Source: an uncultured Lachnospiraceae bacterium (GTDB lineage: Bacteria > Bacillota > Clostridia > Christensenellales > UBA1242). From it: 39,537 nucleotides of DNA. Shown here one piece after another: positions 779 through 39,537 of this stretch (position 1 is the first letter of the stretch; the number at the start of each line of letters is the position of its first letter). Both the position numbers and the translations under genes were made by a program. Under the pieces are notes generated by a model. That model was not told where the DNA came from. It saw only the letters and a list, made by a program, of their open reading frames with translations, and ran no database searches. Location: the NCBI GenBank assembly GCA_964520955.1, contig CAZFPH010000001.1, positions 1 through 39,537 of the forward strand, in the 5' to 3' direction.

Positions 779-853
779 TGGAGCTAATGGCGGGGATCGA
801 ACCCGCGACCGCCACCTTACCAAGGTGGTGCTCTACCACTGAGCCACATTAGC
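779..853 (-). tRNA. tRNA-Thr (anticodon GGU), CCA encoded
   Basis: The reverse complement reads GCTAATGTGGCTCAGTGGTAGAGCACCACCTTGGTAAGGTGGCGGTCGCGGGTTCGATCCCCGCCATTAGCTCCA. Acceptor stem is GCTAATG/CATTAGC. Anticodon stem CCACC/GGTGG carries loop TTGGTAA (anticodon GGT). The T-arm contains GGTTCGATCC. Confidence 0.95.
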
Positions 854-1050: not shown

Positions 1051-1081
1051 ACAAAAAGAACCCATAGGCTTATCCTATAGG
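1051..1081 (-). terminator. terminator of the minus-strand glycopolymer operon
   Basis: Minus strand CCUAUAGG-auaag-CCUAUGGG followed by UUCUUUUUG; the stop codon lies in the stem. Confidence 0.5.
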
Positions 1082-2064
1082 TTTTTATTTGCATCTATTT
1101 TACATTTTTTTATTTTATATTCAACGCCACCCATTTGAGTCTTGTAGGTTTCTGTGCCAATTGCGAGGTCTAGAGTGAAAATCTCTTTTTTGATTAGCTC
1201 TTTGATTGTTTCATTAACCAAAATGACACCTGCACTATACCTTGAAAATCTGTCATCAATAGCAAGTCTTGGAACAATCGCCTCTCCGCTTTTAATAACA
1301 CCTGCCATGTAACACGCAATTTTCTCATCAATATAAAGCACTGCAGAAAAACTATTTTTTAAACTGAAGCAAACTTTTGAAATCGGCTCATCAATCATGT
1401 AAACCATTTTCTTTAAAAAATTCATATTGCTGTATTTTTTTGCTCTACGATTCAAATAAAGACTTTTGAGTTGTTTTGCAAGTTTCTTATCGGTTTGCCC
1501 CATAACAAATTCAAATCTATATGATAAGCCGTCGGTTTTCAATCTATTGTATGCTGTCCTCAAATTTTGTCTTGAATGCTTTGTGAGCGACTGATAATAT
1601 GCATCATAATCGGCAGTGTAATCAATTTTTACACAAGATGTATCATCGTCAAACTCGACATATTCACTAAGTTTGCTGTATGCATTTTTGTTTGCTTTCA
1701 ATTTATTTAAAACAATGGGTTTTTGCTCTAGTTTTGAAATTTCTAAAAGAGCTTCATAAATCTCTTTTCCACTAGCGTTTTCATAAGTTACAAGGTCATA
1801 GAAATCAAGGGTGTATAACGATTCAATAACATCACTTTGAACATTTGCTGAAAAAATCATAACTGGCTTATCACCATTAAAAACAACATAATAAACAACA
1901 CTTGATTTTTTGAGCAATCCTTTAATCTTGTTGGTTATTCCTGAAGTGAAAGTCTTCACAAACTCAAAATCTGCCATGGCATCTAAGTTTTGATTATTCT
2001 CTTCCATGTCAGTCCAAATCGATTTCAGTTCGTCTATCTTGTTATACTTTACTACCTTTAGCAT
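1075..2064 (-). CDS. CelD/BioF2-like (FemAB-fold) GNAT-family acyl/aminoacyl-transferase, putative
   Basis: 329 aa. The C-terminal half (AIVPRLAIDDRFSRYSAGVILVNETIKELIKK...LDLAIGTETYKTQMGG) resembles the CelD/BioF2-like acetyltransferase family seen in polysaccharide loci. It overlaps the upstream gene by 23 nt. Confidence 0.55.
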   Translation of the reverse strand: MLKVVKYNKIDELKSIWTDMEENNQNLDAMADFEFVKTFTSGITNKIKGLLKKSSVVYYVVFNGDKPVMIFSANVQSDVIESLYTLDFYDLVTYENASGKEIYEALLEISKLEQKPIVLNKLKANKNAYSKLSEYVEFDDDTSCVKIDYTADYDAYYQSLTKHSRQNLRTAYNRLKTDGLSYRFEFVMGQTDKKLAKQLKSLYLNRRAKKYSNMNFLKKMVYMIDEPISKVCFSLKNSFSAVLYIDEKIACYMAGVIKSGEAIVPRLAIDDRFSRYSAGVILVNETIKELIKKEIFTLDLAIGTETYKTQMGGVEYKIKKCKIDANKNL

Positions 2065-3181
2065 TTTCTTTTAAAATCTCCTTGCACATTTCAGGTGTGC
2101 TCATAAACTCAACATCTTGAAATTCGGCTTTAATCATTGAAAGCAATCTATCCAAAAGCATCAAACATTTTTCTCTGTTTTCAGTGCTTATGCCACCAAT
2201 ATAATTCACTCTGTGTGAGCAAATGACAGCCGGTTTTTTACATTTGAAAGCAAATTTAATTTGCGAAATAATATCGCTCAATATTGCATCTTCTGATACG
2301 CCATTCATTAAATCTTTTGAAGGCTCAAAAAAACAGTTTCTATAAAAATACCTAATGTTTGAAACTTTGCTTTTTTCTCCAAAACGATGAAGTTTCTTTT
2401 TGTATTTTCCGTTTTTTGCTGGAACGTTCTGGAATAATTTTCCTTGCAAAAATTTCACGCCATTTTCTTCAAGAGTTTTTTCGTCAGAGTTTTTCCAGAC
2501 ATAGCATGGAGCAATAAAAGATTCACTAAATTGACCAAATATTCTTTTAAATTCTCTTGTCGCATCATCTATAATCACATTTGACTTTTCACTAGGCACA
2601 TTTAAACAATCCATACCACAATAAAGCGAGTTTTTCACACCTACAATCTTTAAGTTTAATGCATCTTTTTGAAGCTGGTCACCAGTAGAAATATCGGCAA
2701 TTAACTCTTCGGTGTTTATATGCTCACGAGCATGAAGCTGTGGTAAAAAACAGCCCTTATACTCGCCATCAGCAACTTCTGCCAAAACCTTTTTGCTTGA
2801 ACTAGATAGCTTGTAATATTCATCAAGACCTAAAAGCTTAACACTTTTGTAGCCATCATCTTTCATTGCATCATAGTCTAAGTTTTTTGTTGCAAAATTA
2901 AGTGTGAAACACGCAGGGTTTCCATTTTTATCCTTGTGCTTTAAAACAGCTTTCTTTAACTTTTTGACATCTTCATCAGTTTCAGTGCAATCAAACGCCT
3001 GATAGTTATCTGGCTCAAAATTAGCGTGTTTTGACATAAGTTCATCTAACGCTTTTTTAGAAAAACTTCTTTCTGCCCCCCAATCATCACTTTCAAATAC
3101 AACAATCTGTCTGTTAGTTTTTAAACCCTTGCTATAATAAAACTTCTTAATTATTTTTTTTATTTGGCTTTTTATTTGCAT
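2042..3181 (-). CDS. hypothetical polysaccharide-modifying enzyme, possibly NodB/CE4-like metal-dependent deacetylase fold
   Basis: 379 aa with a GAGG RBS. Motifs FESDDWG, LHAREH (HxxxH) and CSHRVN are reminiscent of the NodB motifs. The assignment is tentative. Confidence 0.45.
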   Translation of the reverse strand: MQIKSQIKKIIKKFYYSKGLKTNRQIVVFESDDWGAERSFSKKALDELMSKHANFEPDNYQAFDCTETDEDVKKLKKAVLKHKDKNGNPACFTLNFATKNLDYDAMKDDGYKSVKLLGLDEYYKLSSSSKKVLAEVADGEYKGCFLPQLHAREHINTEELIADISTGDQLQKDALNLKIVGVKNSLYCGMDCLNVPSEKSNVIIDDATREFKRIFGQFSESFIAPCYVWKNSDEKTLEENGVKFLQGKLFQNVPAKNGKYKKKLHRFGEKSKVSNIRYFYRNCFFEPSKDLMNGVSEDAILSDIISQIKFAFKCKKPAVICSHRVNYIGGISTENREKCLMLLDRLLSMIKAEFQDVEFMSTPEMCKEILKENAKGSKV

Positions 3182-4370
3182 TTTTTATTACCTCAAAAAT
3201 ACGTTCGTTGTTTTTGTTGTCAACAAACTCAAAACATTGTTTAACTCTTTCTCTGTCAGGTTTTGCAAAGTTCTTAACTTTTGATTTTAAAATTTCAATA
3301 ACTTCTTCATCTGTGCCAGCCCATTCACCAAGAATTGTGTCTTTATATGAAAAATAGCCTTCTGCATATTGACCAGACCTATATTTCTGTTCATCAAATT
3401 GATAAAAAATTACTGGTTTGCCAAGATAGGCAAAATCAAATAAAACACTTGAATAATCAGTTATCATACACGCTGATTCATTGATTGCTGTTTGCACGTC
3501 ATACTCTGCAGTGTTTGCAAAAGTAATTCTATCTGACGATGAATTGAATGACCCGAGATATTTTTGCATATTTCTATGAGGATAGAAAATTGCTGTTAAG
3601 TCATTCTTTTCTAAAAACTCAATAAACTCCTTGTTGTTTAAAAAGCCGTTCCAATATCTGAAGTATTCAGTTTCTTCAAAAACTTTTGTGCCTTCATATT
3701 TTTCGCACTCAACTTCTCTAGCAATCCAGTTTCTCCAAGTTGGCATAATTAAAACTTGTTTTGGTTTCAAGTTGTCATTTGAAAGGCTATCGTATCTTGA
3801 AAAACCTGCAAGACTAATTTGCTCTGGCTTATAGCCAAAATTTTCAACGATATAGTTATGTTCATCTTTGGTTACGGTGAAAAATCTGTGGTATTTTGAA
3901 TTTTTGTAGTGTAAAAACTCAACAAAGCTCATAGTTACACCATGTTGCAAAAAGTATCTATTCTTTTTGCGGAGTCCTAAGCAAACTTCAAAAACATAAC
4001 ACCACGCAGCATTTGGTTTGCCATTTTTTTGTGATGAAATATTTTTATCAGCAACTAAATACCAAAACCAGTGACTCATTGAACCAAATGAAATCACTTT
4101 TCCAAGGTCTTTAACCTTTGCATAATCTGGTGCCTTTTTGTTGATTGCATAAGCCACCTTAATTTCTGGATGATGCTCTCTTATATACTTAAACAACCAA
4201 TATCCATTATCACGTGCTTCATTTCTGTCTTCACACACAAGCCAAAAGTTGCGAATAAAAATTTTTGCAATCATTGCCGGCACAAAGACAACAGCAAGCA
4301 CAAAAAATGATAAAATATCTTTAAATTTTACAAACTTAAATCTTCCTAAAAGGTAACTTTTTTTCTTCAT
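3147..4370 (-). CDS. CDP-glycerol/ribitol glycerophosphotransferase family protein (TagB/TagF type), membrane anchored
   Basis: 407 aa with an N-terminal hydrophobic helix (ILSFFVLAVVFVPAMIAKIFI). Motifs LQHGV and ITDYSSVLFDFAYLGKPVIFYQFD are typical of the Glyphos_transf family. Confidence 0.85.
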   Translation of the reverse strand: MKKKSYLLGRFKFVKFKDILSFFVLAVVFVPAMIAKIFIRNFWLVCEDRNEARDNGYWLFKYIREHHPEIKVAYAINKKAPDYAKVKDLGKVISFGSMSHWFWYLVADKNISSQKNGKPNAAWCYVFEVCLGLRKKNRYFLQHGVTMSFVEFLHYKNSKYHRFFTVTKDEHNYIVENFGYKPEQISLAGFSRYDSLSNDNLKPKQVLIMPTWRNWIAREVECEKYEGTKVFEETEYFRYWNGFLNNKEFIEFLEKNDLTAIFYPHRNMQKYLGSFNSSSDRITFANTAEYDVQTAINESACMITDYSSVLFDFAYLGKPVIFYQFDEQKYRSGQYAEGYFSYKDTILGEWAGTDEEVIEILKSKVKNFAKPDRERVKQCFEFVDNKNNERIFEVIKNANKKPNKKNN

Positions 4371-4492
4371 AAAAACCTCACTAAAATTATAATAACATAT
4401 TTCTTTAAAGAATAAAATCTAATTTCGACAAATATTCTTTTTTCATTTACTTTAAATAGGTTTTATGTTAACATAAATTCGGAGAAACCATT

Positions 4493-5491
4493 ATGAAAAA
4501 CGATTTAGTGAGCATAATTATCCCAGCATACAAGGCAGAAAAATATATCGAAAGATGTCTTGAAAGCGTCATCAATCAAACCTACACGAATCTTGAAATT
4601 TTGATTATTGATGATGGCAGTCCTGACAAAACCCCTGAAATGCTTGATACTTATGCAAAAAAAGATAAAAGAATAAAAGTTATTCACAAAACAAATGGTG
4701 GTGTTTCTTCTGCTAGAAACGAAGGCATTAAAAAAGCCACAGGCAAATATATTTGTTTTGTTGATATTGATGATGAAGTAAAAACTGATTACGTCAAATG
4801 TATGTACGAAGCAATCACTAAGCATAACACAGACGCTGCAATGTGTTCATTAATTTCTGAACGAAAAAAAGATATCTTTACAATTGAAGGTTCAGAGACC
4901 ACAAAAGTTTTAACCTTTCCTGAAAACCTAGATGATTTTGTTGAAGTTTATTGCAGTGGAGTGTTTATGCCACCATATTGCAAGCTTTACAAAAAAGAAA
5001 TGATTAAAGAAGGCTTCCCTGAAAACACAAACTTTGGCGAAGATGAAATTTTTAACCTCAAATACTTCTGCAATGTTAAAAGTTTGGTTGTTGTTCCTGA
5101 ACCACAATATGTCTACTATTTAAACGACGCATCGCTTAGCCACAAAGACGGAATTTCTTTAATCAATCAAAGAATTAATAATATCCAAACAAGATATTTG
5201 CTACTATCTAAATTATTTGGTGAAAACTCAAAAAACGCAAATTATTTAACCTCTAGGTTCATAATACGTCATATTTTTGGTGTTATTGAAGAAAAAATAA
5301 AATCTAAAACAAAAACAAAAGAGATTGTTAAAATTTTAAAAGAACTAACTAGCAACAAAGAAGTTCAATTTGCATTAAGCATATATCCAGAAATCGACAA
5401 AAAAACTACTCTCATTTGGAAATGTCTTGTTAAAAAACAATTTAGAAAATTGGTACTTTTAAGAAAAATAAAAATGATATTTTCAAAATAA
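4493..5491 (+). CDS. family 2 glycosyltransferase
   Basis: 332 aa; VSIIIPAYKAEKYIERCLESVINQTYTNLEILIIDDGSPD and a VDIDD (DxD) motif; GGAGA RBS. Confidence 0.9.
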   Translation: MKNDLVSIIIPAYKAEKYIERCLESVINQTYTNLEILIIDDGSPDKTPEMLDTYAKKDKRIKVIHKTNGGVSSARNEGIKKATGKYICFVDIDDEVKTDYVKCMYEAITKHNTDAAMCSLISERKKDIFTIEGSETTKVLTFPENLDDFVEVYCSGVFMPPYCKLYKKEMIKEGFPENTNFGEDEIFNLKYFCNVKSLVVVPEPQYVYYLNDASLSHKDGISLINQRINNIQTRYLLLSKLFGENSKNANYLTSRFIIRHIFGVIEEKIKSKTKTKEIVKILKELTSNKEVQFALSIYPEIDKKTTLIWKCLVKKQFRKLVLLRKIKMIFSK

Positions 5492-5499
5492 AGGAAATT

Positions 5500-6447
5500 A
5501 TGAAAAACAAAGAACTAATCAGTGTAATTGTTCCTGTTTACAAAGTTGAACAATACCTAGAAAAATGTGTTAGCACAATAAAAAGTCAGACCTACAACAA
5601 CCTTGAAATCATTTTAGTTGACGACGGCAGTCCTGATGAATGCCCTAAACTTTGCGACGACCTCGCAAAAACAGACAAGAGGATAAAGGTTATTCACAAA
5701 ACAAATGGTGGACTTTCTGACGCAAGAAATGCTGGATTTGAAGCTTCTAAAGGAAACTTTGTTACTTTTATTGATAGCGATGATTACATAAACTCTCACT
5801 TTGTTGAAACACTTTACAAAAATATTGTTGACACAAACGCAGACCTTTCAATAGTTGGTTACAAAGAAGTTGTTGAAAATGAAGAAGTTGACACCACCAA
5901 GGCTGAATCTTCTGAAATTTTATGTTTTGATGCTAAGAACAAATTTGAGCAACTTTTTAAAGAGCATCGATTAAACTTTGTTATTGCATGGGGCAAACTT
6001 TATAAACGCGAAATATTTGATAATTTACGTTTTCCTGTTGGCAAAATCAATGAAGATGAATTTGTGACACATCACGTTATTGATAGATGCCAAAAAATAT
6101 GCTTTGAAAATGTGCCATACTATTATTACTTGCAGAGAGCAAACAGCATCACACACTCTGTTTTCACAGAAAGAAATATGCATATTTTTGAAGCTCTTGA
6201 TGATAGGCTTGCATTTTTTGAAAATATGCCAGAATTTCAAAAAGAAACATTATACTCATATCTTTCATCAATAATTTATAAATACTACCATTTTAAAAAA
6301 GACTTAAGAAAGGAACTTCTCAAAAAATTCAAAATTTTAACTAAAATCTATAAAGACTTTGTAAAGTCTTTCAGCCTAAAAAGAAAAATAAAAATCGCAC
6401 TCTTTAGATACTTCAGAATATTTTATAGATTTTACAGATTCAAATAA
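5500..6447 (+). CDS. family 2 glycosyltransferase (paralog of the preceding gene)
   Basis: 315 aa; ISVIVPVYKVEQYLEKCVSTIKSQTYNNLEIILVDDGSPD and IDSDD. It shares a 23-nt identical stretch with the upstream gene (4679-4701 = 5689-5711). Confidence 0.9.
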   Translation: MKNKELISVIVPVYKVEQYLEKCVSTIKSQTYNNLEIILVDDGSPDECPKLCDDLAKTDKRIKVIHKTNGGLSDARNAGFEASKGNFVTFIDSDDYINSHFVETLYKNIVDTNADLSIVGYKEVVENEEVDTTKAESSEILCFDAKNKFEQLFKEHRLNFVIAWGKLYKREIFDNLRFPVGKINEDEFVTHHVIDRCQKICFENVPYYYYLQRANSITHSVFTERNMHIFEALDDRLAFFENMPEFQKETLYSYLSSIIYKYYHFKKDLRKELLKKFKILTKIYKDFVKSFSLKRKIKIALFRYFRIFYRFYRFK

Positions 6448-6468
6448 AAGACCGAGAGGTCTTTTTTT
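6447..6468 (+). terminator. rho-independent terminator after the GT2 pair
   Basis: AAAGACC-gaga-GGTCTTT followed by TTTTT. Confidence 0.7.
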
Positions 6469-6499
6469 GCCCAAATTTTTATAATTTTTATGTTTTTCC

Positions 6500-6528
6500 T
6501 TCTAATTTATATAGTGTTGTGCTATAAT
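6500..6528 (+). promoter_or_regulatory. extended -10 promoter (TGcTATAAT) for the Wzx::TagF gene
   Basis: TGCTATAAT at 6520-6528 with a weak -35 TTCTAA at 6500-6505 (17-nt spacer). Confidence 0.5.
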
Positions 6529-6561
6529 GAGATAGTAAATTTATGGTAAAAGAAGGACTTT

Positions 6562-9246
6562 ATGAAAATAAACAAAACCAAAAATACACTAAATAATGTT
6601 CTGTTTGGCTCAATAAACAAAATTATTGCCATTCTTTTTCCATTTGTAATTCGAACCATAATTATAAAAACACTGGGCGTGCAATATCTTGGTCTAAACT
6701 CATTATTTTCATCGATATTAAACATTTTAAGTTTGGCTGAACTTGGCTTTGGAACTGCAATGGTCTATAGTATGTATAAGCCAATTGCCGAAGATGATAC
6801 CGAAACCATTAATGCTCTGCTCAATCTTTACAAAAAAATATATCGTGTCATTGGTATTATTGTTTTAACTGTTGGTCTTGCCATTATGCCTTTCTTAAAA
6901 TTCTTTATCAAAGGCTCACACCCGGCAGACATTAATCTCTACACATTATACTTAGTCTTTTTAGCAAACAATGTTATAAGCTACTTCTTCTTTGCTTACA
7001 AGTCATCGCTTCTTTCAGCACATCAAAAAAATGATATAACCAGCAAGATTCATATTTTGACATCAACCTTGATGTACGTTTCACAAATTGTAGTTTTGCT
7101 TTGCTTTAAAAACTACTACGCTTACATTGTTTTCTTGCCTCTTTCAACACTAGCTGTTAACATTTTAACTGCTATCATCACAAAAAAGCAGTATCCTCAG
7201 TACTTCTGCAAAGGTCAAGTTCCAAAAGAACAAAAAAATGCCATCAAAAAACAGATATCGGCTTTGTTCTTGCACAGGATTGGATATGTTGTTCAGTCAT
7301 CAATCGACAACATTTGCATCAGTGCATTTTTGGGACTAACCCTTCTTGGAAAATACAATAACTACTATTACATAATCACAGCAATACAAGGCTTTATCAC
7401 AATAATAAAACAATCAATGGTTGCTGGTGTTGGAAACAGCCTTATTGTTGATTCAAAAGAAGAAAATAAAAAATTCTTCAACAAAACACTGTTTGTTTTT
7501 GCATGGATAGTTGGCTGGTGTTCAATTTGTTTGATGTGCTTATACCAACCATTCATGAACGTTTGGGTTAAACAAACAAATATGCTTCCATTATCCGTTG
7601 TTATTTGCCTGGTTGTTTTGTTCTACTCAAGCGAAATGCGTGGTGTAACAGGAATGTATAAAGACGCTCTTGGAATGTGGCACGAAGATAGGTTTAAGCC
7701 AATGTCCATTTCAGCAGTCAATTTGGTGGGTACACTTATTTCTGCATACTTTGGCTGGTTTGAAGGAATTATTCTTTCAACAATTGCTGGATATGTGCTT
7801 GTTGGCTTTCCATGGGAAACACATATATTTTTCAAAAAGTATATGAAAGAAAAACCAACAAAATATTACCTCAAACAATTATTCTATCTTTGCACAACCA
7901 TAGTGGCAATCTCTGTTACATACTTTATTTGTAGCATAGTGTCACTAGAAGGTATCCCTGAAATTATTGTAAAGGGTTGCATTTGCCTAGTTGTGCCAAA
8001 CATAATATTTATTTTTGTTTACTTTAAAACACCTGAATTTAAAGAAATTTTTAAATCCCTCAAAAAAGGAAAAGTTATGGGAAAAATTATAAACAAAACT
8101 AAAAGAGTGCTAAGAAAAATTAAACAAATCACATTTCACACCATTTCTCTTGTTTTTTATTTATTCCCCATAAAGAAAAATAAAATAACTTTTTGTAATT
8201 TTTCGGGAAAAGGCTATGGTTGCAATCCAAAATATTTAGCTGAAGAGTTCTTAAAAGACGACAAATATGAACTTGTTTGGTTTGTTTCTAACCTTGATGA
8301 TGCAAGCATTCCTGCAAGCATCAAAAAAGTTAAGTATGGTTCGCTTAAACACTACTATCACTTAATCACAGCAAAGCTCTGGATTGACAACATTAGAAAC
8401 AACCCAAAACCACTCTTTAAAAGAAAAAAACAAATTTATATTCAATCTTGGCATGGTGGACTTATGCTTAAGGGCATAGAAAAAGATGCTGAAAGCTCAC
8501 TATCTAAAGATTATATTAAAGCAGCTAAGCATGACGGCAAAATTACAGATTATGTGCTCTCTAACTGCCAAAAAAGAACCGAACTTATAAAACGTTCTTT
8601 CTGGTATGATGGTGAGATTTTAGAATACGGTGTTCCTAGAGACGATGTTATGTTTAAGCCTAATGAAAAAGAAATTGCTGAACTTAAGCAAAAATATAAT
8701 ATCGAAAACAAAAAGATTGTAATATATGCACCTTCTTTTAGAAAGGATAAGTCGTTTTATACTAATTTAACCTTTAATCCAGACAAATTAGTTGACACAC
8801 TTAACAAGAAATTTAATAATGATTTTGTATTCTGTGTGAGATTGCACCCAAACGACACATCAATAACTAGCCTTAAGGGTTTTGAAAATGTTATTAACTT
8901 AACAAAAGAAGCAGACTCTCAGCTAATTTTGTCTGCAGCAGATGTTGTTGTTTCTGACTACTCAAGCATGCTACTTGATTTCACCTTAACAAAAAGACCA
9001 GCTTTCTTCTTTGCACCTGACTATGATGAATACATTAAAAAAGAAAGAGGTTTATACATTGATTTAGCAAAAGCCGGAATACCTTTTTCAAAAACATTTG
9101 ATGAACTGATTTCATCAGTGGAAACGTTTAATTCAAAACAATATATCAAAGATCTTGATAAGTTATTTGATTTTTATGAAGTTTTTGAAAGTGGTGATTC
9201 TGCAAAATTAATCGTTGAACACTTAATGAGTAAAGGAGACATATAA
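6562..9246 (+). CDS. fusion protein: Wzx-type (MOP superfamily) polysaccharide flippase (res 1 to about 500) + TagF-type CDP-alcohol phosphotransferase (res about 506-894)
   Basis: 894-aa uninterrupted ORF. The N-terminal part is multi-TM with Polysacc_synt-like features. The C-terminal part has SWHGG and VSDYSSMLLDFTLTKRPAFFFAPDYDEY. An in-frame ATG at 8077 is preceded by AAGGAAAAG. Confidence 0.8.
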   Translation: MKINKTKNTLNNVLFGSINKIIAILFPFVIRTIIIKTLGVQYLGLNSLFSSILNILSLAELGFGTAMVYSMYKPIAEDDTETINALLNLYKKIYRVIGIIVLTVGLAIMPFLKFFIKGSHPADINLYTLYLVFLANNVISYFFFAYKSSLLSAHQKNDITSKIHILTSTLMYVSQIVVLLCFKNYYAYIVFLPLSTLAVNILTAIITKKQYPQYFCKGQVPKEQKNAIKKQISALFLHRIGYVVQSSIDNICISAFLGLTLLGKYNNYYYIITAIQGFITIIKQSMVAGVGNSLIVDSKEENKKFFNKTLFVFAWIVGWCSICLMCLYQPFMNVWVKQTNMLPLSVVICLVVLFYSSEMRGVTGMYKDALGMWHEDRFKPMSISAVNLVGTLISAYFGWFEGIILSTIAGYVLVGFPWETHIFFKKYMKEKPTKYYLKQLFYLCTTIVAISVTYFICSIVSLEGIPEIIVKGCICLVVPNIIFIFVYFKTPEFKEIFKSLKKGKVMGKIINKTKRVLRKIKQITFHTISLVFYLFPIKKNKITFCNFSGKGYGCNPKYLAEEFLKDDKYELVWFVSNLDDASIPASIKKVKYGSLKHYYHLITAKLWIDNIRNNPKPLFKRKKQIYIQSWHGGLMLKGIEKDAESSLSKDYIKAAKHDGKITDYVLSNCQKRTELIKRSFWYDGEILEYGVPRDDVMFKPNEKEIAELKQKYNIENKKIVIYAPSFRKDKSFYTNLTFNPDKLVDTLNKKFNNDFVFCVRLHPNDTSITSLKGFENVINLTKEADSQLILSAADVVVSDYSSMLLDFTLTKRPAFFFAPDYDEYIKKERGLYIDLAKAGIPFSKTFDELISSVETFNSKQYIKDLDKLFDFYEVFESGDSAKLIVEHLMSKGDI

Positions 9247-9848
9247 TGCCTGACTACAAATTTATATTTGACTTGGATTCAACAATAACAAAAGAGGAAA
9301 TTTTGCCAAAGATTTCTATTGAAGTTGGAAAGCAAGAAGAAATGCGTGCATTAACCGAAGCAACAATGCTTGGTGAAATTCCTTTTGAAGAGAGCTTCAC
9401 ACGAAGAGTTAAAATTTTATCTACCCTTCCAATAAGTAAGGTTCAAGAAATTGTATACAACATAAAACTCAACGAAGAACTTGCTGAGTTTATTGCACAA
9501 AACAAAGAAAAGTGCTATGTCGTGACTGGAAACCTAGATTGTTGGATTTGCAAACTTATGGAAAAACTTGGGCTAGCTGACCACTGTTATTGTTCAAATG
9601 CAAGCACTGATGGTGATGCCTTACTTGGAATAAATAAAATTATTAACAAAAAAGAAACCGTTGAGTCTTTAGGCGAAAACATTATTGTTGTTGGCGATGG
9701 CAACAACGACGCTGAAATGATTAGTGTGGCAAAAATCGGCATAGGTTTTGGAGCTGTTAGAGAAATTGCTCCAGCGGTTTTAAGATGTTGCACACACGCA
9801 ATTTATGATGAACATACACTTGTGGATTTTTTGAAAAAATTTATTTAG
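9246..9848 (+). CDS. HAD-IB superfamily phosphatase (phosphoserine-phosphatase-like)
   Basis: 200 aa; DxDxT motif FIFDLDSTIT and VVGDGNNDAEM. The start overlaps the upstream stop (TAATG), with a GGAG RBS. Confidence 0.8.
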   Translation: MPDYKFIFDLDSTITKEEILPKISIEVGKQEEMRALTEATMLGEIPFEESFTRRVKILSTLPISKVQEIVYNIKLNEELAEFIAQNKEKCYVVTGNLDCWICKLMEKLGLADHCYCSNASTDGDALLGINKIINKKETVESLGENIIVVGDGNNDAEMISVAKIGIGFGAVREIAPAVLRCCTHAIYDEHTLVDFLKKFI

Positions 9849-9857
9849 GAGAAAAAT

Positions 9858-11204
9858 ATGATTACAAACAAAACCGTTATTATTAGTTGTGCTGGAATGG
9901 GAAAGCGTCTTGGTATTGGCACAACAAAAGCACTTGTTAATGTTGGCGGCAAACCACTAATTATTAGAACTCTTGAGCAACTTAATGATGTTAAAGATGT
10001 TAGAGTGGTTGTTGGTTATCAAGCTGAACGTGTTATGGAAGTTGTTAAAAACTACAGAAAAGACGTTACTTTTGCTTTTAATCACGAATATGAACACAAC
10101 GGAACAGCAGCAAGTGTTTGCAAAGCACTTCCTGGTGCAGCAGAGTTTATTTTGACTATTGATGGAGACCTTTTGGTTCACCCTGAAGATATGAAAACTC
10201 TTTTAACTCTTAACTATGAATGCATTTGTGGCACAAAAATCGACTCAGACGGGCCTGTGCTTTTAACTGTTGATGATAATGGTGACGTTGTTTCATTCTC
10301 AAGAGAAACCGGCGATTATGAGTGGACTGGTATTTGTTGCATAAAAACAGAAAACATTATTCCTTCTGAAAAGCACGTTTATCAAATGCTTGAGCCAATT
10401 TTACCAAAAAAACATTTGTTTATTAGAACAAAAGAAATTGACACACCTGATGATTATTACCGTGCTGAAAAGTGGATTGAAAACAACTATAACGACCATA
10501 TAGTCATTGGTGTTTTAGGTGGTATGGGAAGTTACGCAACACTTGAAATGTTTAAAAATATTCTTGAAAAATTTCCTGCAGAAAAAGAATGGGATAGGCC
10601 TAGAATAATCATTGATAATAACTGCACAATGCCAAGCAGAGTACGTTCAATTCTTTATAACGATAAAACTGATGCTCTTTTAACTGAAATGGTTAATAGT
10701 TTAAAACATCTCATCTCTGCGGGTGCAACAGATATTATTCTTGCTTGCAATACATCACACGTATTCCTAGAGAGAATTTATGAGAAGTTACCATCTCTTA
10801 AAAGACACCTTCATCATATCATTGAAATCACAGCAGATTATTGCATGATAAATAATGTTAATAAACCATACTTGCTTGCAAGTGAAGGAACAATCATCTC
10901 AAATATTTTTGAAGACACCTTTAAAAAGAATAATATTTCTTTAAATTACGACACGGCTGATTTTGAAATTGTTAGAGAGTTTATTGAATGTGTAAAACAA
11001 AACAACATAACGGACGAAGTCGTTTCTAAGTTTGTAGATTTTGTGAATGGTAAAACAGAAGAAACAATTATTCTTGGTTGCACAGAACTCCCTATTCTTT
11101 ATAATAACTGTGCAAATAGAATTAATAAATCAATTATTAACCCACTAGACCTAGCTATTGATAAAATTAAAAATAAATTTGATATTTTAAAATCTAACAA
11201 ATAA
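9858..11204 (+). CDS. fusion protein: LicC/IspD/MobA-like nucleotidyltransferase (res 1 to about 205) + PLP-independent Asp/Glu racemase (res about 214-448)
   Basis: 448 aa. N-terminal VIISCAGMGKRLGIGTTKALVNVGGKPLI (GxGxR...K nucleotidyltransferase signature). C-terminal VIGVLGGMGSYAT, ILACNTSH and ILGCTELP (two catalytic-Cys motifs of aspartate/glutamate racemases). Confidence 0.8.
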   Translation: MITNKTVIISCAGMGKRLGIGTTKALVNVGGKPLIIRTLEQLNDVKDVRVVVGYQAERVMEVVKNYRKDVTFAFNHEYEHNGTAASVCKALPGAAEFILTIDGDLLVHPEDMKTLLTLNYECICGTKIDSDGPVLLTVDDNGDVVSFSRETGDYEWTGICCIKTENIIPSEKHVYQMLEPILPKKHLFIRTKEIDTPDDYYRAEKWIENNYNDHIVIGVLGGMGSYATLEMFKNILEKFPAEKEWDRPRIIIDNNCTMPSRVRSILYNDKTDALLTEMVNSLKHLISAGATDIILACNTSHVFLERIYEKLPSLKRHLHHIIEITADYCMINNVNKPYLLASEGTIISNIFEDTFKKNNISLNYDTADFEIVREFIECVKQNNITDEVVSKFVDFVNGKTEETIILGCTELPILYNNCANRINKSIINPLDLAIDKIKNKFDILKSNK

Positions 11205-11230
11205 AAAGCACACTAACAAGTGTGCTTTTT
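11204..11230. terminator. bidirectional terminator between the racemase-fusion gene and tex
   Basis: AAAAGCACAC-taacaa-GTGTGCTTTT, with an A-run on one side and a T-run on the other. Confidence 0.8.
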
Positions 11231-11240
11231 ATTTGTTAAT

Positions 11241-18130: not shown

Positions 18131-20086
18131 TTATTTTCTATTACTGAGATAATTGTAAATTAAATTAACTGTTTCTTCCACACCAATACTTGAATTTATG
18201 CACAAATCATAGTTTTCTTTTGCACCCCAAGCTTGACCAGTTGTTTCATTATAAAATCTTGCTCTATTTTTGTCAGACTTCAGTATGTTTTCATATGCTG
18301 TATTTTTAGCATCTTTATAATTATTCATAATTCTTTGTTGTTTATATTCCATATCTGCATAAATGAAAATTTTATAAGGATTATGTTCTTTTAAAATATA
18401 ATCAGCACATCTTCCAACAATAATGCAAGAACCTTTCTTTGCAATAGCCTCAAGCACATTGTTTTGAGCTTCTCTTGCAATGGCTGTTGGAGTTTTTGTT
18501 AAATATAATTCGTATATTGGTTGAGAAACGTTACTTTCTAACCTGTTTATGTAATCAACTGCTAAACCTGTATCTTTTGCAACCATTGATGTAAGCTCTT
18601 TATCGTAGCAAGGAATATTCAATTTTTTTGCAAGTTCAAAAGCTATTTGTCTACCACCAGCTCCGTGTTCTCTTGAAATAGTTATAATTAAACCAGGCTT
18701 TGATTTTTCAATCTTTACTGATTTTTCCATTGTTTCTGGTTTTTCAGATAATTTGGTAAACTCTTTGAAAACTAAAACCAAAAATACTATTGCTAATATT
18801 GTTGTTAAAATATCGCTTATTGGAGCTGACCATAAGAAAGCATCAACACCAAAGTTATATAGTATGAATGTTATAGGAACTAGAAAAATCAAATCTCTGC
18901 ACATAGCTACAAGTGTTGATTTTACAGGTTTTTCAATAGATTGGAAGAATATTGCTGTTGCCTTTGTAAAGCAAGTAAGTAATATCATATTCATATAAAT
19001 TCTAAAGCATTTCACACCAAATTCAGACACTTGTGAATAACCGAACAGTGCAAATATTTGCTTTGGTAAGAACAAAAACAACCCAGTTGCTACAAGTCCA
19101 ACAATTAAAGATGTTGTCATAACGAGTTTAAATGTTTGTTTAACTCTATCAAATCTTCTTGCTCCATAGTTGTAACCAATAATAGGTTGACCACCACACG
19201 CTATACCAACTATTATACTAACTACAATTCCAAAAACTTTAAATGCAATTGTTAGCATTCCTATTGCACTATTATCTGTTGGCAACAAACCCAAAATCAA
19301 GTTATTGTTAATAACTGAAATAATAACAATAGAAATTTGCGTTAAGAAACTAGAAATTCCAAGCTTAGCAACGCTTCCAAGTATTTTAAAGTTAGGGATA
19401 AAGTCAGATAATTTCAACTTAAAAGTTTTCGCCCTAAACAAGTAAACCGCACTCAATACAAAAGTAACAACTTGTCCTACAAAGGTTGCAAGTGCCGCAC
19501 CTTGCATTCCCATATCAAAACCAAATAAAAATACCGGGTCTAAAATAATGTTTGTGATAGCACCCGCTAGCATAGCAAACATTGCATATTTAGGGCTACC
19601 ATCTGCTCTTATGATTGGATTGATAATTGTTCCAACAATGAAAAATGGAAAACCAATTATTATAAATGTAGAGTATTCTAATGCAAATGGCATAATAACT
19701 CTATTTGCTCCAAAACCTGATAATATTGGTTTAGCAAATATAAGTCCAATAGCCATCATTATTAAACTGATAATTAAACCAAACGAAAGGTTTGATGCAA
19801 CAGTTTTGCTATTATACTTATTATTATTTTGTCCTTGATTGATACTTAATTTTGCAGCAACACCATCACCAATTAAAAGTCCTATTGCCAGTGCAATAAC
19901 TGTCAAGGGGTAAACAATGCCTGTTGCTGTGTTTCCAAGTTCGCCAAGTCCTTTTGTAAATCCAATAAAGATTTGGTCAACAATATTATAAAGTGCTTGA
20001 ACCACTAGTGAAATAACACAAGGGATTGCAAACATTCTAAGCAGTTTTCCAACCTTAACTTCTTCTAAAAATTTATTATTGTTCAT
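18131..20086 (-). CDS. fusion protein: MATE-family efflux transporter (res 1 to about 450) + cytidylate-kinase-like (Cytidylate_kin2-type) domain (res about 465-651)
   Basis: 651 aa. The N-terminal part is a 12-TM MATE pattern (LLRMFAIPCVISLVVQALYNIVDQIFIG). The C-terminal part reads LIITISREHGAGGRQIAFELAKKLNIPCYDKEL...IIVGRCADYIL, typical of cytidylate-kinase-like family proteins. Confidence 0.8.
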   Translation of the reverse strand: MNNNKFLEEVKVGKLLRMFAIPCVISLVVQALYNIVDQIFIGFTKGLGELGNTATGIVYPLTVIALAIGLLIGDGVAAKLSINQGQNNNKYNSKTVASNLSFGLIISLIMMAIGLIFAKPILSGFGANRVIMPFALEYSTFIIIGFPFFIVGTIINPIIRADGSPKYAMFAMLAGAITNIILDPVFLFGFDMGMQGAALATFVGQVVTFVLSAVYLFRAKTFKLKLSDFIPNFKILGSVAKLGISSFLTQISIVIISVINNNLILGLLPTDNSAIGMLTIAFKVFGIVVSIIVGIACGGQPIIGYNYGARRFDRVKQTFKLVMTTSLIVGLVATGLFLFLPKQIFALFGYSQVSEFGVKCFRIYMNMILLTCFTKATAIFFQSIEKPVKSTLVAMCRDLIFLVPITFILYNFGVDAFLWSAPISDILTTILAIVFLVLVFKEFTKLSEKPETMEKSVKIEKSKPGLIITISREHGAGGRQIAFELAKKLNIPCYDKELTSMVAKDTGLAVDYINRLESNVSQPIYELYLTKTPTAIAREAQNNVLEAIAKKGSCIIVGRCADYILKEHNPYKIFIYADMEYKQQRIMNNYKDAKNTAYENILKSDKNRARFYNETTGQAWGAKENYDLCINSSIGVEETVNLIYNYLSNRK

Positions 20087-38927: not shown

Positions 38928-39537
38928 ATGAAAATATTAAATAAATTAACTATTTTTGCAGTATTATTTTTTATTTTTTGCAGTTTTTGGGGCGGTTTTT
39001 TATTGTCACCCAAAAAATACTCCTTTGCTCTCCACACCGAGCAAGAACAAGCAAAGGAAGCAAGTGAACCTAAAGAAAGCCAAGAAAACGCCACTGAAGC
39101 TGATACCGTTCCAAGCAGAAACTATACCGTTGTGATTGACCCAGGTCACGGAGGTACAGACCCAGGCTCGATTGGATACAAAACAAAAGTTCACGAAGCC
39201 GACCTAAATTTGAAGCTTTCAAAAATGCTCAAAGAAAAACTTGAGGCTTCTGGTATAAACGTTGTTATGACCAGAGAAACCGATAAGGCAATGATTGAGG
39301 GTGCAGGAAAAAAATGGAAAAAAGCCGATATGGAAGCCAGAAAAGAGCTTATCAAAAAAATCCGACCAAATATGGTTATAAGCTTGCATCAAAACAGCTA
39401 CACAAACCATAGCCTTCGTGGGGCACAAGTTTTTTATGATAAAACCAGTGACATAAGCAAACAAATTGCGGAATTTATTCAGGAGCAATTCAAGGCAGAC
39501 CTAGACAAAAGCATAAAAGCAACAAGCCCTGGCGATT
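38928..39537 (+). CDS. N-acetylmuramoyl-L-alanine amidase (Amidase_3, CwlD-like), 3'-truncated by the window edge
   Basis: Not in the ORF track because there is no stop in the window. ATG at 38928 with an AGAGGA RBS. It has an N-terminal TM/signal (LTIFAVLFFIFCSFWGGFLL), then YTVVIDPGHGGTDPGSIGY ... VISLHQNS. It continues to 39537 in frame. Confidence 0.85.
   Translation, partial: MKILNKLTIFAVLFFIFCSFWGGFLLSPKKYSFALHTEQEQAKEASEPKESQENATEADTVPSRNYTVVIDPGHGGTDPGSIGYKTKVHEADLNLKLSKMLKEKLEASGINVVMTRETDKAMIEGAGKKWKKADMEARKELIKKIRPNMVISLHQNSYTNHSLRGAQVFYDKTSDISKQIAEFIQEQFKADLDKSIKATSPGD

Follow-up and report, generated by a model that had tools for sequence, protein, structure and literature searches.

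A variable glycopolymer block with a candidate CDP-amino-acid cassette in an uncultured Lachnospiraceae bacterium, probably one half of a split surface-glycan pathway

Among the closest described counterparts of the locus considered here is the FtaABCD system (CD0241-CD0244) for the type A flagellin glycan of Clostridioides difficile, in which FtaA, a HAD enzyme related to phosphoserine phosphatase (PSP) and ThrH, is the proposed maker of phosphothreonine, FtaB makes cytidine diphosphate (CDP)-threonine, FtaC N-methylates, and the TagF-like FtaD transfers to N-acetylglucosamine (GlcNAc) on flagellin (PMC10714395; bioRxiv 10.64898/2026.02.12.704994). PA1088-1091 of Pseudomonas aeruginosa constitutes a related system, and Fta hits have been listed in Roseburia and Kineothrix (table S1, bioRxiv 10.64898/2026.02.12.704994). 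A further point of comparison is offered by the pneumococcal Wzx/Wzy-dependent capsule loci, which encode the gtp1-3 pathway to CDP-2-glycerol along with the phosphotransferase wchX (PMC1391919), and which also include ribitol-, glycerol- or choline-phosphate types. Finally, the wall teichoic acid (WTA) systems of Bacillus and Staphylococcus run from TagO through TagA, TagB, TagD, TagF and TagGH to an LCP ligase. Here we analyse a stretch of 39,537 nucleotides (hereafter the window), which is the entire contig C1 of a metagenome-assembled genome (MAG) of an uncultured Lachnospiraceae bacterium (GCA_964520955.1), and in particular a glycopolymer block at positions 1075-11204 that shares features with each of these systems.

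An earlier note on this DNA had read the block as an accessory locus devoid of the canonical initiation, activation and export genes, either a module acting on a lipid-linked intermediate begun elsewhere or a hybrid pathway not yet described. Every gene that it listed between 1075 and 11204 was recovered in place by an open reading frame (ORF) map combined with profile searches, and within these 10 kb no match was found to Glycos_transf_4, Bac_transf, an HxGH cytidylyltransferase, an ABC-2 exporter, Wzy, Wzz or LCP. The description as lacking the canonical genes is apt for the block with regard to the classic types, but overstated for the genome, and the apparent lack is largely explained by a split locus together with a fragmented MAG (1.24 Mb in 205 contigs, 79.6% complete, GC content 0.34), against whose completeness all absences at the level of the MAG are to be read. 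We consider it reasonably probable that the block belongs to a split Wzx/Wzy-type surface-glycan pathway, the repeat unit of which would receive a CDP-derived phospho-amino acid, probably in the D-configuration.

The proposed substituent is approached through the two genes that close the plus-strand operon of the block. The first encodes an HAD-IB enzyme of 200 amino acids (aa) (9246-9848, plus strand) of the phosphoserine-phosphatase/ThrH-like kind, which matches the serB model TIGR00338 with an E-value of 1.3e-27 and the ThrH model with one of 1.1e-10, and contains the DxDxT motif. Its best solved relative is the PSP of M. jannaschii (1f5s/1j97), ThrH (1rku) also being matched, and this same PSP is the best solved relative reported for CD0241 (PMC10714395). 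The second gene encodes a 448-aa fusion. Its first part is a nucleotidyltransferase (NT) domain of the LicC/IspD/MobA type (9858-10496, plus strand; PF12804, E 1.1e-12; PF01128, E 6.5e-9), with GxGxRL...K and DGD residues that are invariant, and its second part is an Asp/Glu-type two-cysteine racemase domain (10497-11204, plus strand). The latter scores 112.4 bits against TIGR00035 (cut-off 93.1) and 126 bits against a cysteate-racemase model, which lies under the cut-off of 190 for that model; it matches the Pyrococcus aspartate racemase 1jfl with an E-value of 1.7e-27, and its two cysteines, C297 (in CNTSH) and C408 (in GCTELP), are invariant in 29 homologues. Together the HAD enzyme and the NT::racemase fusion form a non-classical activation module, so that the reported lack of activation genes holds for enzymes of the HxGH type and not for activation as such.

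In having a PSP/ThrH-like HAD enzyme, a LicC-like NT and a TagF-like transferase encoded together, the block resembles FtaABCD, where the donor is CDP-threonine and a phospho-amino acid is passed to a sugar hydroxyl. Orthology to FtaA/FtaB is approached through an indirect chain, in which the HAD and NT of the window are 49-54% identical to those of Roseburia/Lachnospiraceae loci that combine methyltransferase, HAD, NT and TagF genes. The block differs from Fta in lacking a methyltransferase, in the fusion of the NT to a racemase, and in that its acceptor would be a lipid-linked oligosaccharide of Wzx/Wzy type as against GlcNAc on flagellin; flagellin was not found in the MAG. With the pneumococcal loci it would share Wzx/Wzy dependence, an initiating sugar-phosphate transferase, and an in-locus pathway for a CDP-linked substituent with its phosphotransferase, whereas in the window a racemase takes the place of the reductase, an amino acid probably replaces the polyol as substituent, the two parts of the locus would lie about 30 kb apart, and CpsBCD/Wzz-type regulators and an LCP protein (CpsA) are missing. 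A literature search for phospho-amino-acid-bearing capsules or teichoic acids, or for a racemase-NT fusion, returned nothing beyond the Fta papers. We infer the identity and the chirality of the CDP-linked group, and we offer only tentatively, at clearly less than even confidence, the specific proposal that the cassette makes a CDP-D-amino acid, such as CDP-D-allo-threonine or CDP-D-serine, which the flippase-fused TagF domain installs as a phosphodiester-linked D-amino acid on a surface polysaccharide.

A scan for the cassette with one genome per species gave 301 relatives in Clostridia, Bacilli, Lachnospiraceae, Oscillospiraceae, Coriobacteriia and Saccharibacteria, the cultured carriers including Ruminococcus flavefaciens Y1 and Streptococcus ovis DSM 16829, and 82 loci were fetched for inspection of their neighbourhoods. 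The NT is adjoined by a HAD homologue in 75 of the 82, nearly always directly upstream, while the racemase is fused or adjacent in 28. The cassette is in this sense a functional unit that has been conserved. In 41 of 72 loci its immediate neighbours include LicD- or TagF-type genes, and the adjacency of TagF, HAD and NT as seen in the window recurs in L009, L032, L041 and L028. The cassette is also found repeatedly with a class-I methyltransferase (18 loci), with TagD and, in some Oscillospiraceae, with TagGH. NT::racemase homologues are numerous, HAD::NT::racemase triple fusions also occur, and in 22 loci there is a second NT fused to a CobD-like (threonine-phosphate-decarboxylase-like) enzyme, which scores 169 bits against TIGR01140, below the cut-off. 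L104:11533-13347 and 21 other Lachnospiraceae loci (e.g., L062, L072, L073) carry HAD-NT-LicD operons followed by this NT::CobD-like pyridoxal-phosphate enzyme, an arrangement that suggests a decoration of the CDP-aminopropanol type (decarboxylated threonine phosphate).

A tree of the NT domain places the window in one clade with L008, L009, a same-genus genome, Saccharibacteria and Coriobacteriia. The sister of that clade (support 93/97) is a methyltransferase-linked clade of Lachnospiraceae, whose loci combine HAD, NT and methyltransferase genes, most of them with a TagF-like or LicD gene. Flagellin genes are found in three loci of the methyltransferase-linked clade (L065, L099, L105), and several methyltransferase loci of Lachnospiraceae and Eubacterium carry flagellin; this linkage to flagellin corresponds to the ftaABCD arrangement of C. 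difficile. Two loci of uncultured Eubacterium sp. (L084, L088), rich in glycosyltransferases, resemble these flagellin-linked islands but showed no flagellin gene; they bring together a methyltransferase, a stand-alone Asp-type racemase, HAD, NT, a radical-SAM/SPASM protein and a TagF-like enzyme, and D-amino-acid versions of the Fta modification may also occur on glycans of this kind.

The neighbourhoods bear equally on whether the cassette handles an amino acid at all. It might instead activate glycerol-2-phosphate in the manner of Gtp3/Gtp2, or a phospho-hydroxy acid such as glycerate, with the racemase supplying a D-amino acid for some other step, for instance acylation by the CelD/FemAB-like enzyme of the block. 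The presence of that enzyme would fit such a donor, as would the precedent of a three-gene CDP-2-glycerol pathway plus wchX in pneumococcal Wzy-dependent loci (PMC1391919) and the occurrence of the HAD-NT pair without a racemase in most loci. The racemase, moreover, appears from the NT tree to be a mobile add-on, since its association requires at least seven changes (gains or losses) there. However, no Gtp1-like reductase is present in the window, and none is consistent across the 82 loci; the covalent fusions NT::racemase and HAD::NT::racemase speak for a role of the racemase in the same pathway, the CobD-like and methyltransferase partners point to an amino-bearing substrate of the threonine/serine type, and the trio of genes that includes the CelD-like one is also found without a racemase (L110, L111). 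We regard a donor other than an amino acid as unlikely.

The candidate user of the donor lies directly upstream of the cassette, the start of the HAD gene overlapping the stop of an 894-aa fusion gene (6562-9246, plus strand) in the sequence TAATG. The N-terminal part of the fusion is a Wzx-type flippase domain of the MOP class (6562-8099, plus strand), scoring 35.7 bits against Polysacc_synt PF01943 (cut-off 28.2) and 31 bits against the NF041503 WZX_like model, whose cut-off is 300. A crude hydropathy scan finds at least eight hydrophobic segments in it, and it shares 62% identity with a flippase of L009 that is a separate 513-aa protein. No other Wzx-type flippase was recovered in the MAG; two further MOP proteins, on contigs C43 and C29, were rejected as further Wzx candidates because they are SpoVB/MurJ-like. 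Joined to it in frame is a TagF-type CDP-alcohol phosphotransferase domain (8100-9246, plus strand; PF04464, E 2.6e-71, 241 bits against a cut-off of 22.1), which scores 158 bits against the TarF model and aligns to the Staphylococcus epidermidis TagF structure 3L7I (E 1.9e-43) across the whole catalytic region. Both histidines of TagF are kept in the fused domain (IQSWHGG versus IQTWHGT and VRLHP versus LRMHY, the WHG and R(M/L)H motifs); we take those of the WHG and RMH motifs in S. epidermidis TagF to be its catalytic residues. A domain at the C-terminus of Wzx would, given the known topology of these flippases, face the cytoplasm. Of the two TagF-type domains in the block, it is probably the fused one for which the cassette makes its CDP donor. 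With both racemase cysteines invariant, both TagF histidines kept and the DxDxT motif of the HAD enzyme present, these proteins seem competent for catalysis.

The fusion itself is best understood against the closest relative, L109, which has the same gene order at about 85% DNA identity, and in which a Wzx::GT32 fusion (808 aa; L109:2193-4619) is followed by a separate TagF gene (385 aa). Compared with L109, 857 bp are missing from the window, and they correspond exactly to the GT32 domain. Two short similar sequences flank the break, at which Wzx is joined in frame to about the fourth codon of TagF. Stand-alone TagF proteins at least 90% identical to the fused domain exist, and there are four independent Wzx::TagF clusters at 56-70% identity. 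Because TagF is a separate gene in L109 and L009 and its close relatives stand alone, the fusion appears, as judged from these comparisons, to be the outcome of a recent and recurrent deletion and not a special machine. An origin as an assembly artefact was considered and is unlikely, given the in-frame join between short similar sequences and the four independent fused clusters. The closest homologues of the window Wzx (up to 86% identity) are fused to GT32 (Caps_synth/Gly_transf_sug) in proteins of about 800 aa, and fusion to the final tailoring enzyme on the cytoplasmic side has recurred in this Wzx lineage.

These TagF features raise the alternative that the block alone makes a teichoic-acid-like poly(phosphodiester) chain, polymerised by TagF and exported by the fused Wzx with no outside partner, which comes close to the hybrid pathway of the earlier note. 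The block does have two TagF-type domains, the fused one with its TarF score and full catalytic alignment, and the Wzx::TagF fusion is unusual yet found in four clusters. Against this, the primer machinery TagO/TagA/TagB is found nowhere in the genus, Wzx flippases carry short units, the fusion has the deletion history just described, and relatives hold the same genes in ordinary Wzx/Wzy loci. The comparison with WTA loci of Bacillus and Staphylococcus likewise extends to the TagF-family domains and the two histidines, and stops at the absence here of TagO, TagD and LCP (TagO and LCP genus-wide), at Wzx export, and at a TagGH-like pair that lies in an unrelated locus. Such an autonomous polymer is in our estimation highly improbable. 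Nor is a hybrid pathway of a new kind called for, because TagF/LicD-type transferases with private CDP-precursor genes are known from pneumococcal Wzx/Wzy capsule loci (PMC1391919), and L008 and L009 carry the cassette inside complete Wzx/Wzy loci.

The functions missing from the block are, in part, encoded on another contig of the MAG. The only Bac_transf protein of the MAG, an initiating phosphoglycosyl transferase (C10:6496-7416; PF02397, 192 bits; TIGR03025, E 5e-63), lies on contig C10 beside a glycosyltransferase gene (labelled GT4 or GT1) and two paralogous Wzy_C-like membrane proteins, each with 10-11 predicted hydrophobic segments. The latter match Wzy_C with E-values of 2-4e-4, under the Pfam cut-off, and share 24-26% identity with the Wzy_C::GT2 proteins of L009. 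The absence of an initiating transferase and of Wzy is true inside the block, then; it does not extend to the genome for the transferase, nor, if the Wzy_C-like proteins are polymerases, for Wzy. The suggestion of a module acting on a lipid-linked intermediate begun elsewhere is supported by this separate cluster. As to its position, synteny was compared over window 38928-39536 and contig C10:1-8444 (L010): in two same-genus genomes (G009, G001) the right-end genes of the window are succeeded by those of C10, in the order protease, unknown protein, Wzy-like, (GT1), Bac_transf. Judged by this synteny, the C10 cluster probably sits a few kb past the window, which puts it some 30 kb to the right of the block. 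Among the 20 other genomes of the genus, Bac_transf is present in 17 and a Wzy_C-like gene in 18, and the two are adjacent wherever both are listed. We infer that the C10 cluster and the block are partners.

The wider survey covered 21 genomes of the genus (G000-G020; 11 of them at least 90% complete; same-genus genome sizes 0.7-2.0 Mb). No LCP protein (PF03816) was found in any of the 21, and every one of them has exactly one Glycos_transf_4 match, the copy of the MAG bearing MraY motifs, on which ground its identification as TagO was rejected. The MAG position given with this observation is C6:12643-13182. With one Glycos_transf_4 protein per genome and no LCP in 21 of 21, the absence of TagO and LCP is a lineage trait and not an assembly gap, and the genus, although it has peptidoglycan synthesis, lacks both TagO and an LCP ligase. 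The missing TagO/WecA of the earlier note is in this way confirmed for the block and beyond it, as is the missing LCP ligase; a chain-length regulator (PF02706; Wzz/CpsCD) likewise had no match in the block or in the MAG, the genome being incomplete. TagD was also not found: three CTP_transf_like matches were rejected as a CoaD-like protein, an NadD-like protein and a 281-aa protein, none of them TagD-sized, in the MAG that is 79.6% complete. What the genome-wide survey did find, in addition to the Wzy_C-like genes, is a TagGH-like ABC pair in a separate GT2-rich locus on contig C3, no such pair being linked to the TagF genes in the window. The lack of export genes thus applies to TagGH in the block, which has its own Wzx. 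The C3 locus (C3:223-14000; L108) is a second glycopolymer locus with the TagGH-like exporter pair, several GT2 genes, a DUF6270 protein, a GT2 + HAD protein of at least 937 aa (its frame open at the fetched end) and two large proteins without a family match.

The genus-wide picture gives some room to a third alternative, in which the product is an O-glycan of an S-layer or other surface protein, made by the same assembly route and Wzx, with one of the Wzy_C proteins acting as an O-oligosaccharyltransferase in place of a wall-polysaccharide polymerase. With neither LCP nor TagO in 21 of 21 genomes, the usual route of attachment to peptidoglycan is closed; the two paralogous Wzy_C-like proteins are encoded next to each other, and Wzy_C is also the domain of WaaL/PglL-type ligases; and Fta-type decoration is so far known on a glycoprotein, flagellin, only. 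However, neither cluster has a target protein or S-layer gene linked to it, L008 and L009 resemble standard capsule or exopolysaccharide loci, and the MAG has no detected flagellin. We hold a protein O-glycan to be improbable and continue with the split surface-polysaccharide pathway.

In addition to the operon ending in the cassette, the block has a minus-strand operon of three overlapping genes. The first encodes a divergent stand-alone TagF-type phosphotransferase of 407 aa (3147-4370, minus strand; Glyphos_transf PF04464, E 1.1e-35, 123.7 bits against a cut-off of 22.1), which matches the TagF structure weakly, its C-terminal part alone aligning. The third encodes a CelD/FemAB-like acyl- or aminoacyl-transferase of the GNAT fold (1075-2064, minus strand; 329 aa; Acetyltransf_6 PF13480, E 3.6e-10). 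Between them lies the gene for a 379-aa protein (2042-3181, minus strand) that has no Pfam match, no signal peptide and no transmembrane segment, and for which sequence and profile searches of the PDB gave nothing. Its family is large (1287 representatives at E <= 0.001), has neither a Pfam model nor a characterised member, and keeps the motifs ESDDWG, HxxxH and HR invariant, the invariant residues including D32, D33, H150, H154, H323 and R324; weak GH57 matches were obtained for 8 of 36 members. Its AlphaFold model (pLDDT 94.9) has as top Foldseek matches the HP0310 deacetylase, ArnD and CE4 enzymes; the best fold matches take in deacetylases of peptidoglycan and of polysaccharides, and also GH57. 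The NodB-like label given to the protein earlier holds in this modelled fold: with the ArnD/CE4 (NodB) de-N-acylases the protein shares the fold and motifs of the Asp-Asp / His-x3-His type, from which it departs in TM-scores of about 0.45-0.6 and identities of 9-12%, so that it is best described as a putative metal-dependent de-N-acetylase of the NodB/CE4-GH57 fold. ArnD, too, has a polyprenyl-linked sugar as its substrate and works on the cytoplasmic side of the membrane. The trio is conserved in L109, L110 and L111. In L109, codon 377 of the homologue of the 379-aa protein (L109:8001-9140; 87% identical) is TGA, which was translated as Trp in the public gene call; under table 11 the protein would end three residues early, and the window shows no sign of recoding.

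Comparison with relatives indicates that the block is a variable element. The NT::racemase fusion was not found in 18 of the 20 other same-genus genomes, and the other two hold one domain each. Next to the Tex gene, other glycan genes are found in G005, G009 and G007, G001 and G004 have none at this position, and the GC content of the block (0.319) is among the lowest 1.7% of the 10-kb windows of the MAG. The variability and the atypical GC content that the earlier note proposed to look for are both seen, the former across genomes of the genus. The relatives also show what a complete arrangement looks like: L009 has Wzy::GT2, GT4, two GT2, Wzx, GT32, TagF, HAD, NT::racemase and Bac_transf in one contiguous locus, and L008 has Bac_transf, GT2, Wzy, GT1, GT32, two GT2, a flippase, LicD, HAD and NT::racemase contiguously, LicD replacing TagF. 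L110 retains the same scaffold including the trio, with the cassette swapped for an IspD-type NT and an SDR protein (TarI/J-like), and L111 has the trio alone. Since L110 holds another cassette on the same scaffold, the locus family appears from gene content to be modular, its precursor cassettes being interchangeable. As a component of the joint reading, it is rather likely that the block is the variable, horizontally exchanged tailoring-plus-flipping half of the split pathway.

The pathway that we propose for the two clusters would run as follows. The C10 Bac_transf and GT4 would start an oligosaccharide linked to undecaprenyl diphosphate, which the two GT2 enzymes of the block, of 332 aa (4493-5491, plus strand; PF00535, E 4.5e-44) and 315 aa (5500-6447, plus strand; PF00535, E 6e-38), would lengthen. 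The FtaA/ThrH-like HAD enzyme would supply an O-phospho-hydroxy-amino acid, most likely threonine or serine phosphate, and the NT::racemase would turn it into a CDP-linked, probably D-configured, amino acid. At the cytoplasmic face, immediately before the unit is flipped, the Wzx-fused TagF domain, and perhaps the stand-alone TagF-like enzyme too, would move the phospho-amino acid onto a sugar hydroxyl, while, conjecturally, the NodB-fold and CelD/FemAB-like enzymes would probably de-N-acetylate and re-acylate an amino sugar. The completed unit would then be flipped by the Wzx domain, and the Wzy_C-like proteins would polymerise it or ligate it to an acceptor.

Several points weigh against this pathway. 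The Wzy_C matches on C10 are below the Pfam cut-off (E about 1e-4), and the join of C10 to C1 is deduced from synteny in relatives and is not assembled. There are two TagF-type domains, yet one precursor cassette, and no TagD was found in the roughly 80% complete MAG. The racemase could feed another step. Orthology to Fta and to pneumococcal Gtp2/Gtp3 rests on an indirect chain, and with no methyltransferase in the locus and no flagellin in the MAG the analogy to Fta is one of precursor chemistry only. The Wzx::TagF junction is as given by the assembly, and no LCP ligase was found in the genus to join the glycan to a final acceptor.

With regard to its borders and signals, the variable block is flanked on the left by a tRNA-Thr (GGT) gene (779-853, minus strand; ARAGORN) and on the right by a terminator hairpin with a 20-bp stem (11195-11238, plus strand) between the cassette and the convergent Tex gene. 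A terminator-like hairpin at 1059-1083 (minus strand) directly follows the stop of the three-gene minus-strand operon, and the two operons are separated, in the ORF map, by a divergent intergenic region at 4371-4492 that would hold the promoters and that shows a consensus-like promoter match. Elsewhere in the window, an ORF at 18131-20086 has a weak match to Polysacc_synt/MOP-type proteins (a MATE-like transporter of about 650 aa).

Set against the described systems, the new element here is the predicted CDP-(D)-amino-acid decoration, an Fta-like cassette with an added racemase, in the context of a polysaccharide. CDP-amino-acid chemistry was shown only in 2023-2026 and for a flagellin glycan only, and it now appears to occur widely, as a modular cassette, in the polysaccharide loci of uncultured bacteria from gut and rumen. 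If the D-amino-acid proposal is true, it would amount to a class of metabolite and a glycan decoration that are new, in a lineage without TagO or LCP, and with a spread over 300 or more species-level genomes of Bacillota, Coriobacteriia and Saccharibacteria from gut and rumen. With cultured carriers such as R. flavefaciens Y1 and S. ovis DSM 16829, the prediction is directly testable. The genus-wide lack of LCP and TagO further raises the question of how Clostridia with reduced genomes anchor their surface glycans. A phosphodiester-linked D-amino-acid epitope on such glycans would alter surface charge, and could affect recognition by phages and antibodies.

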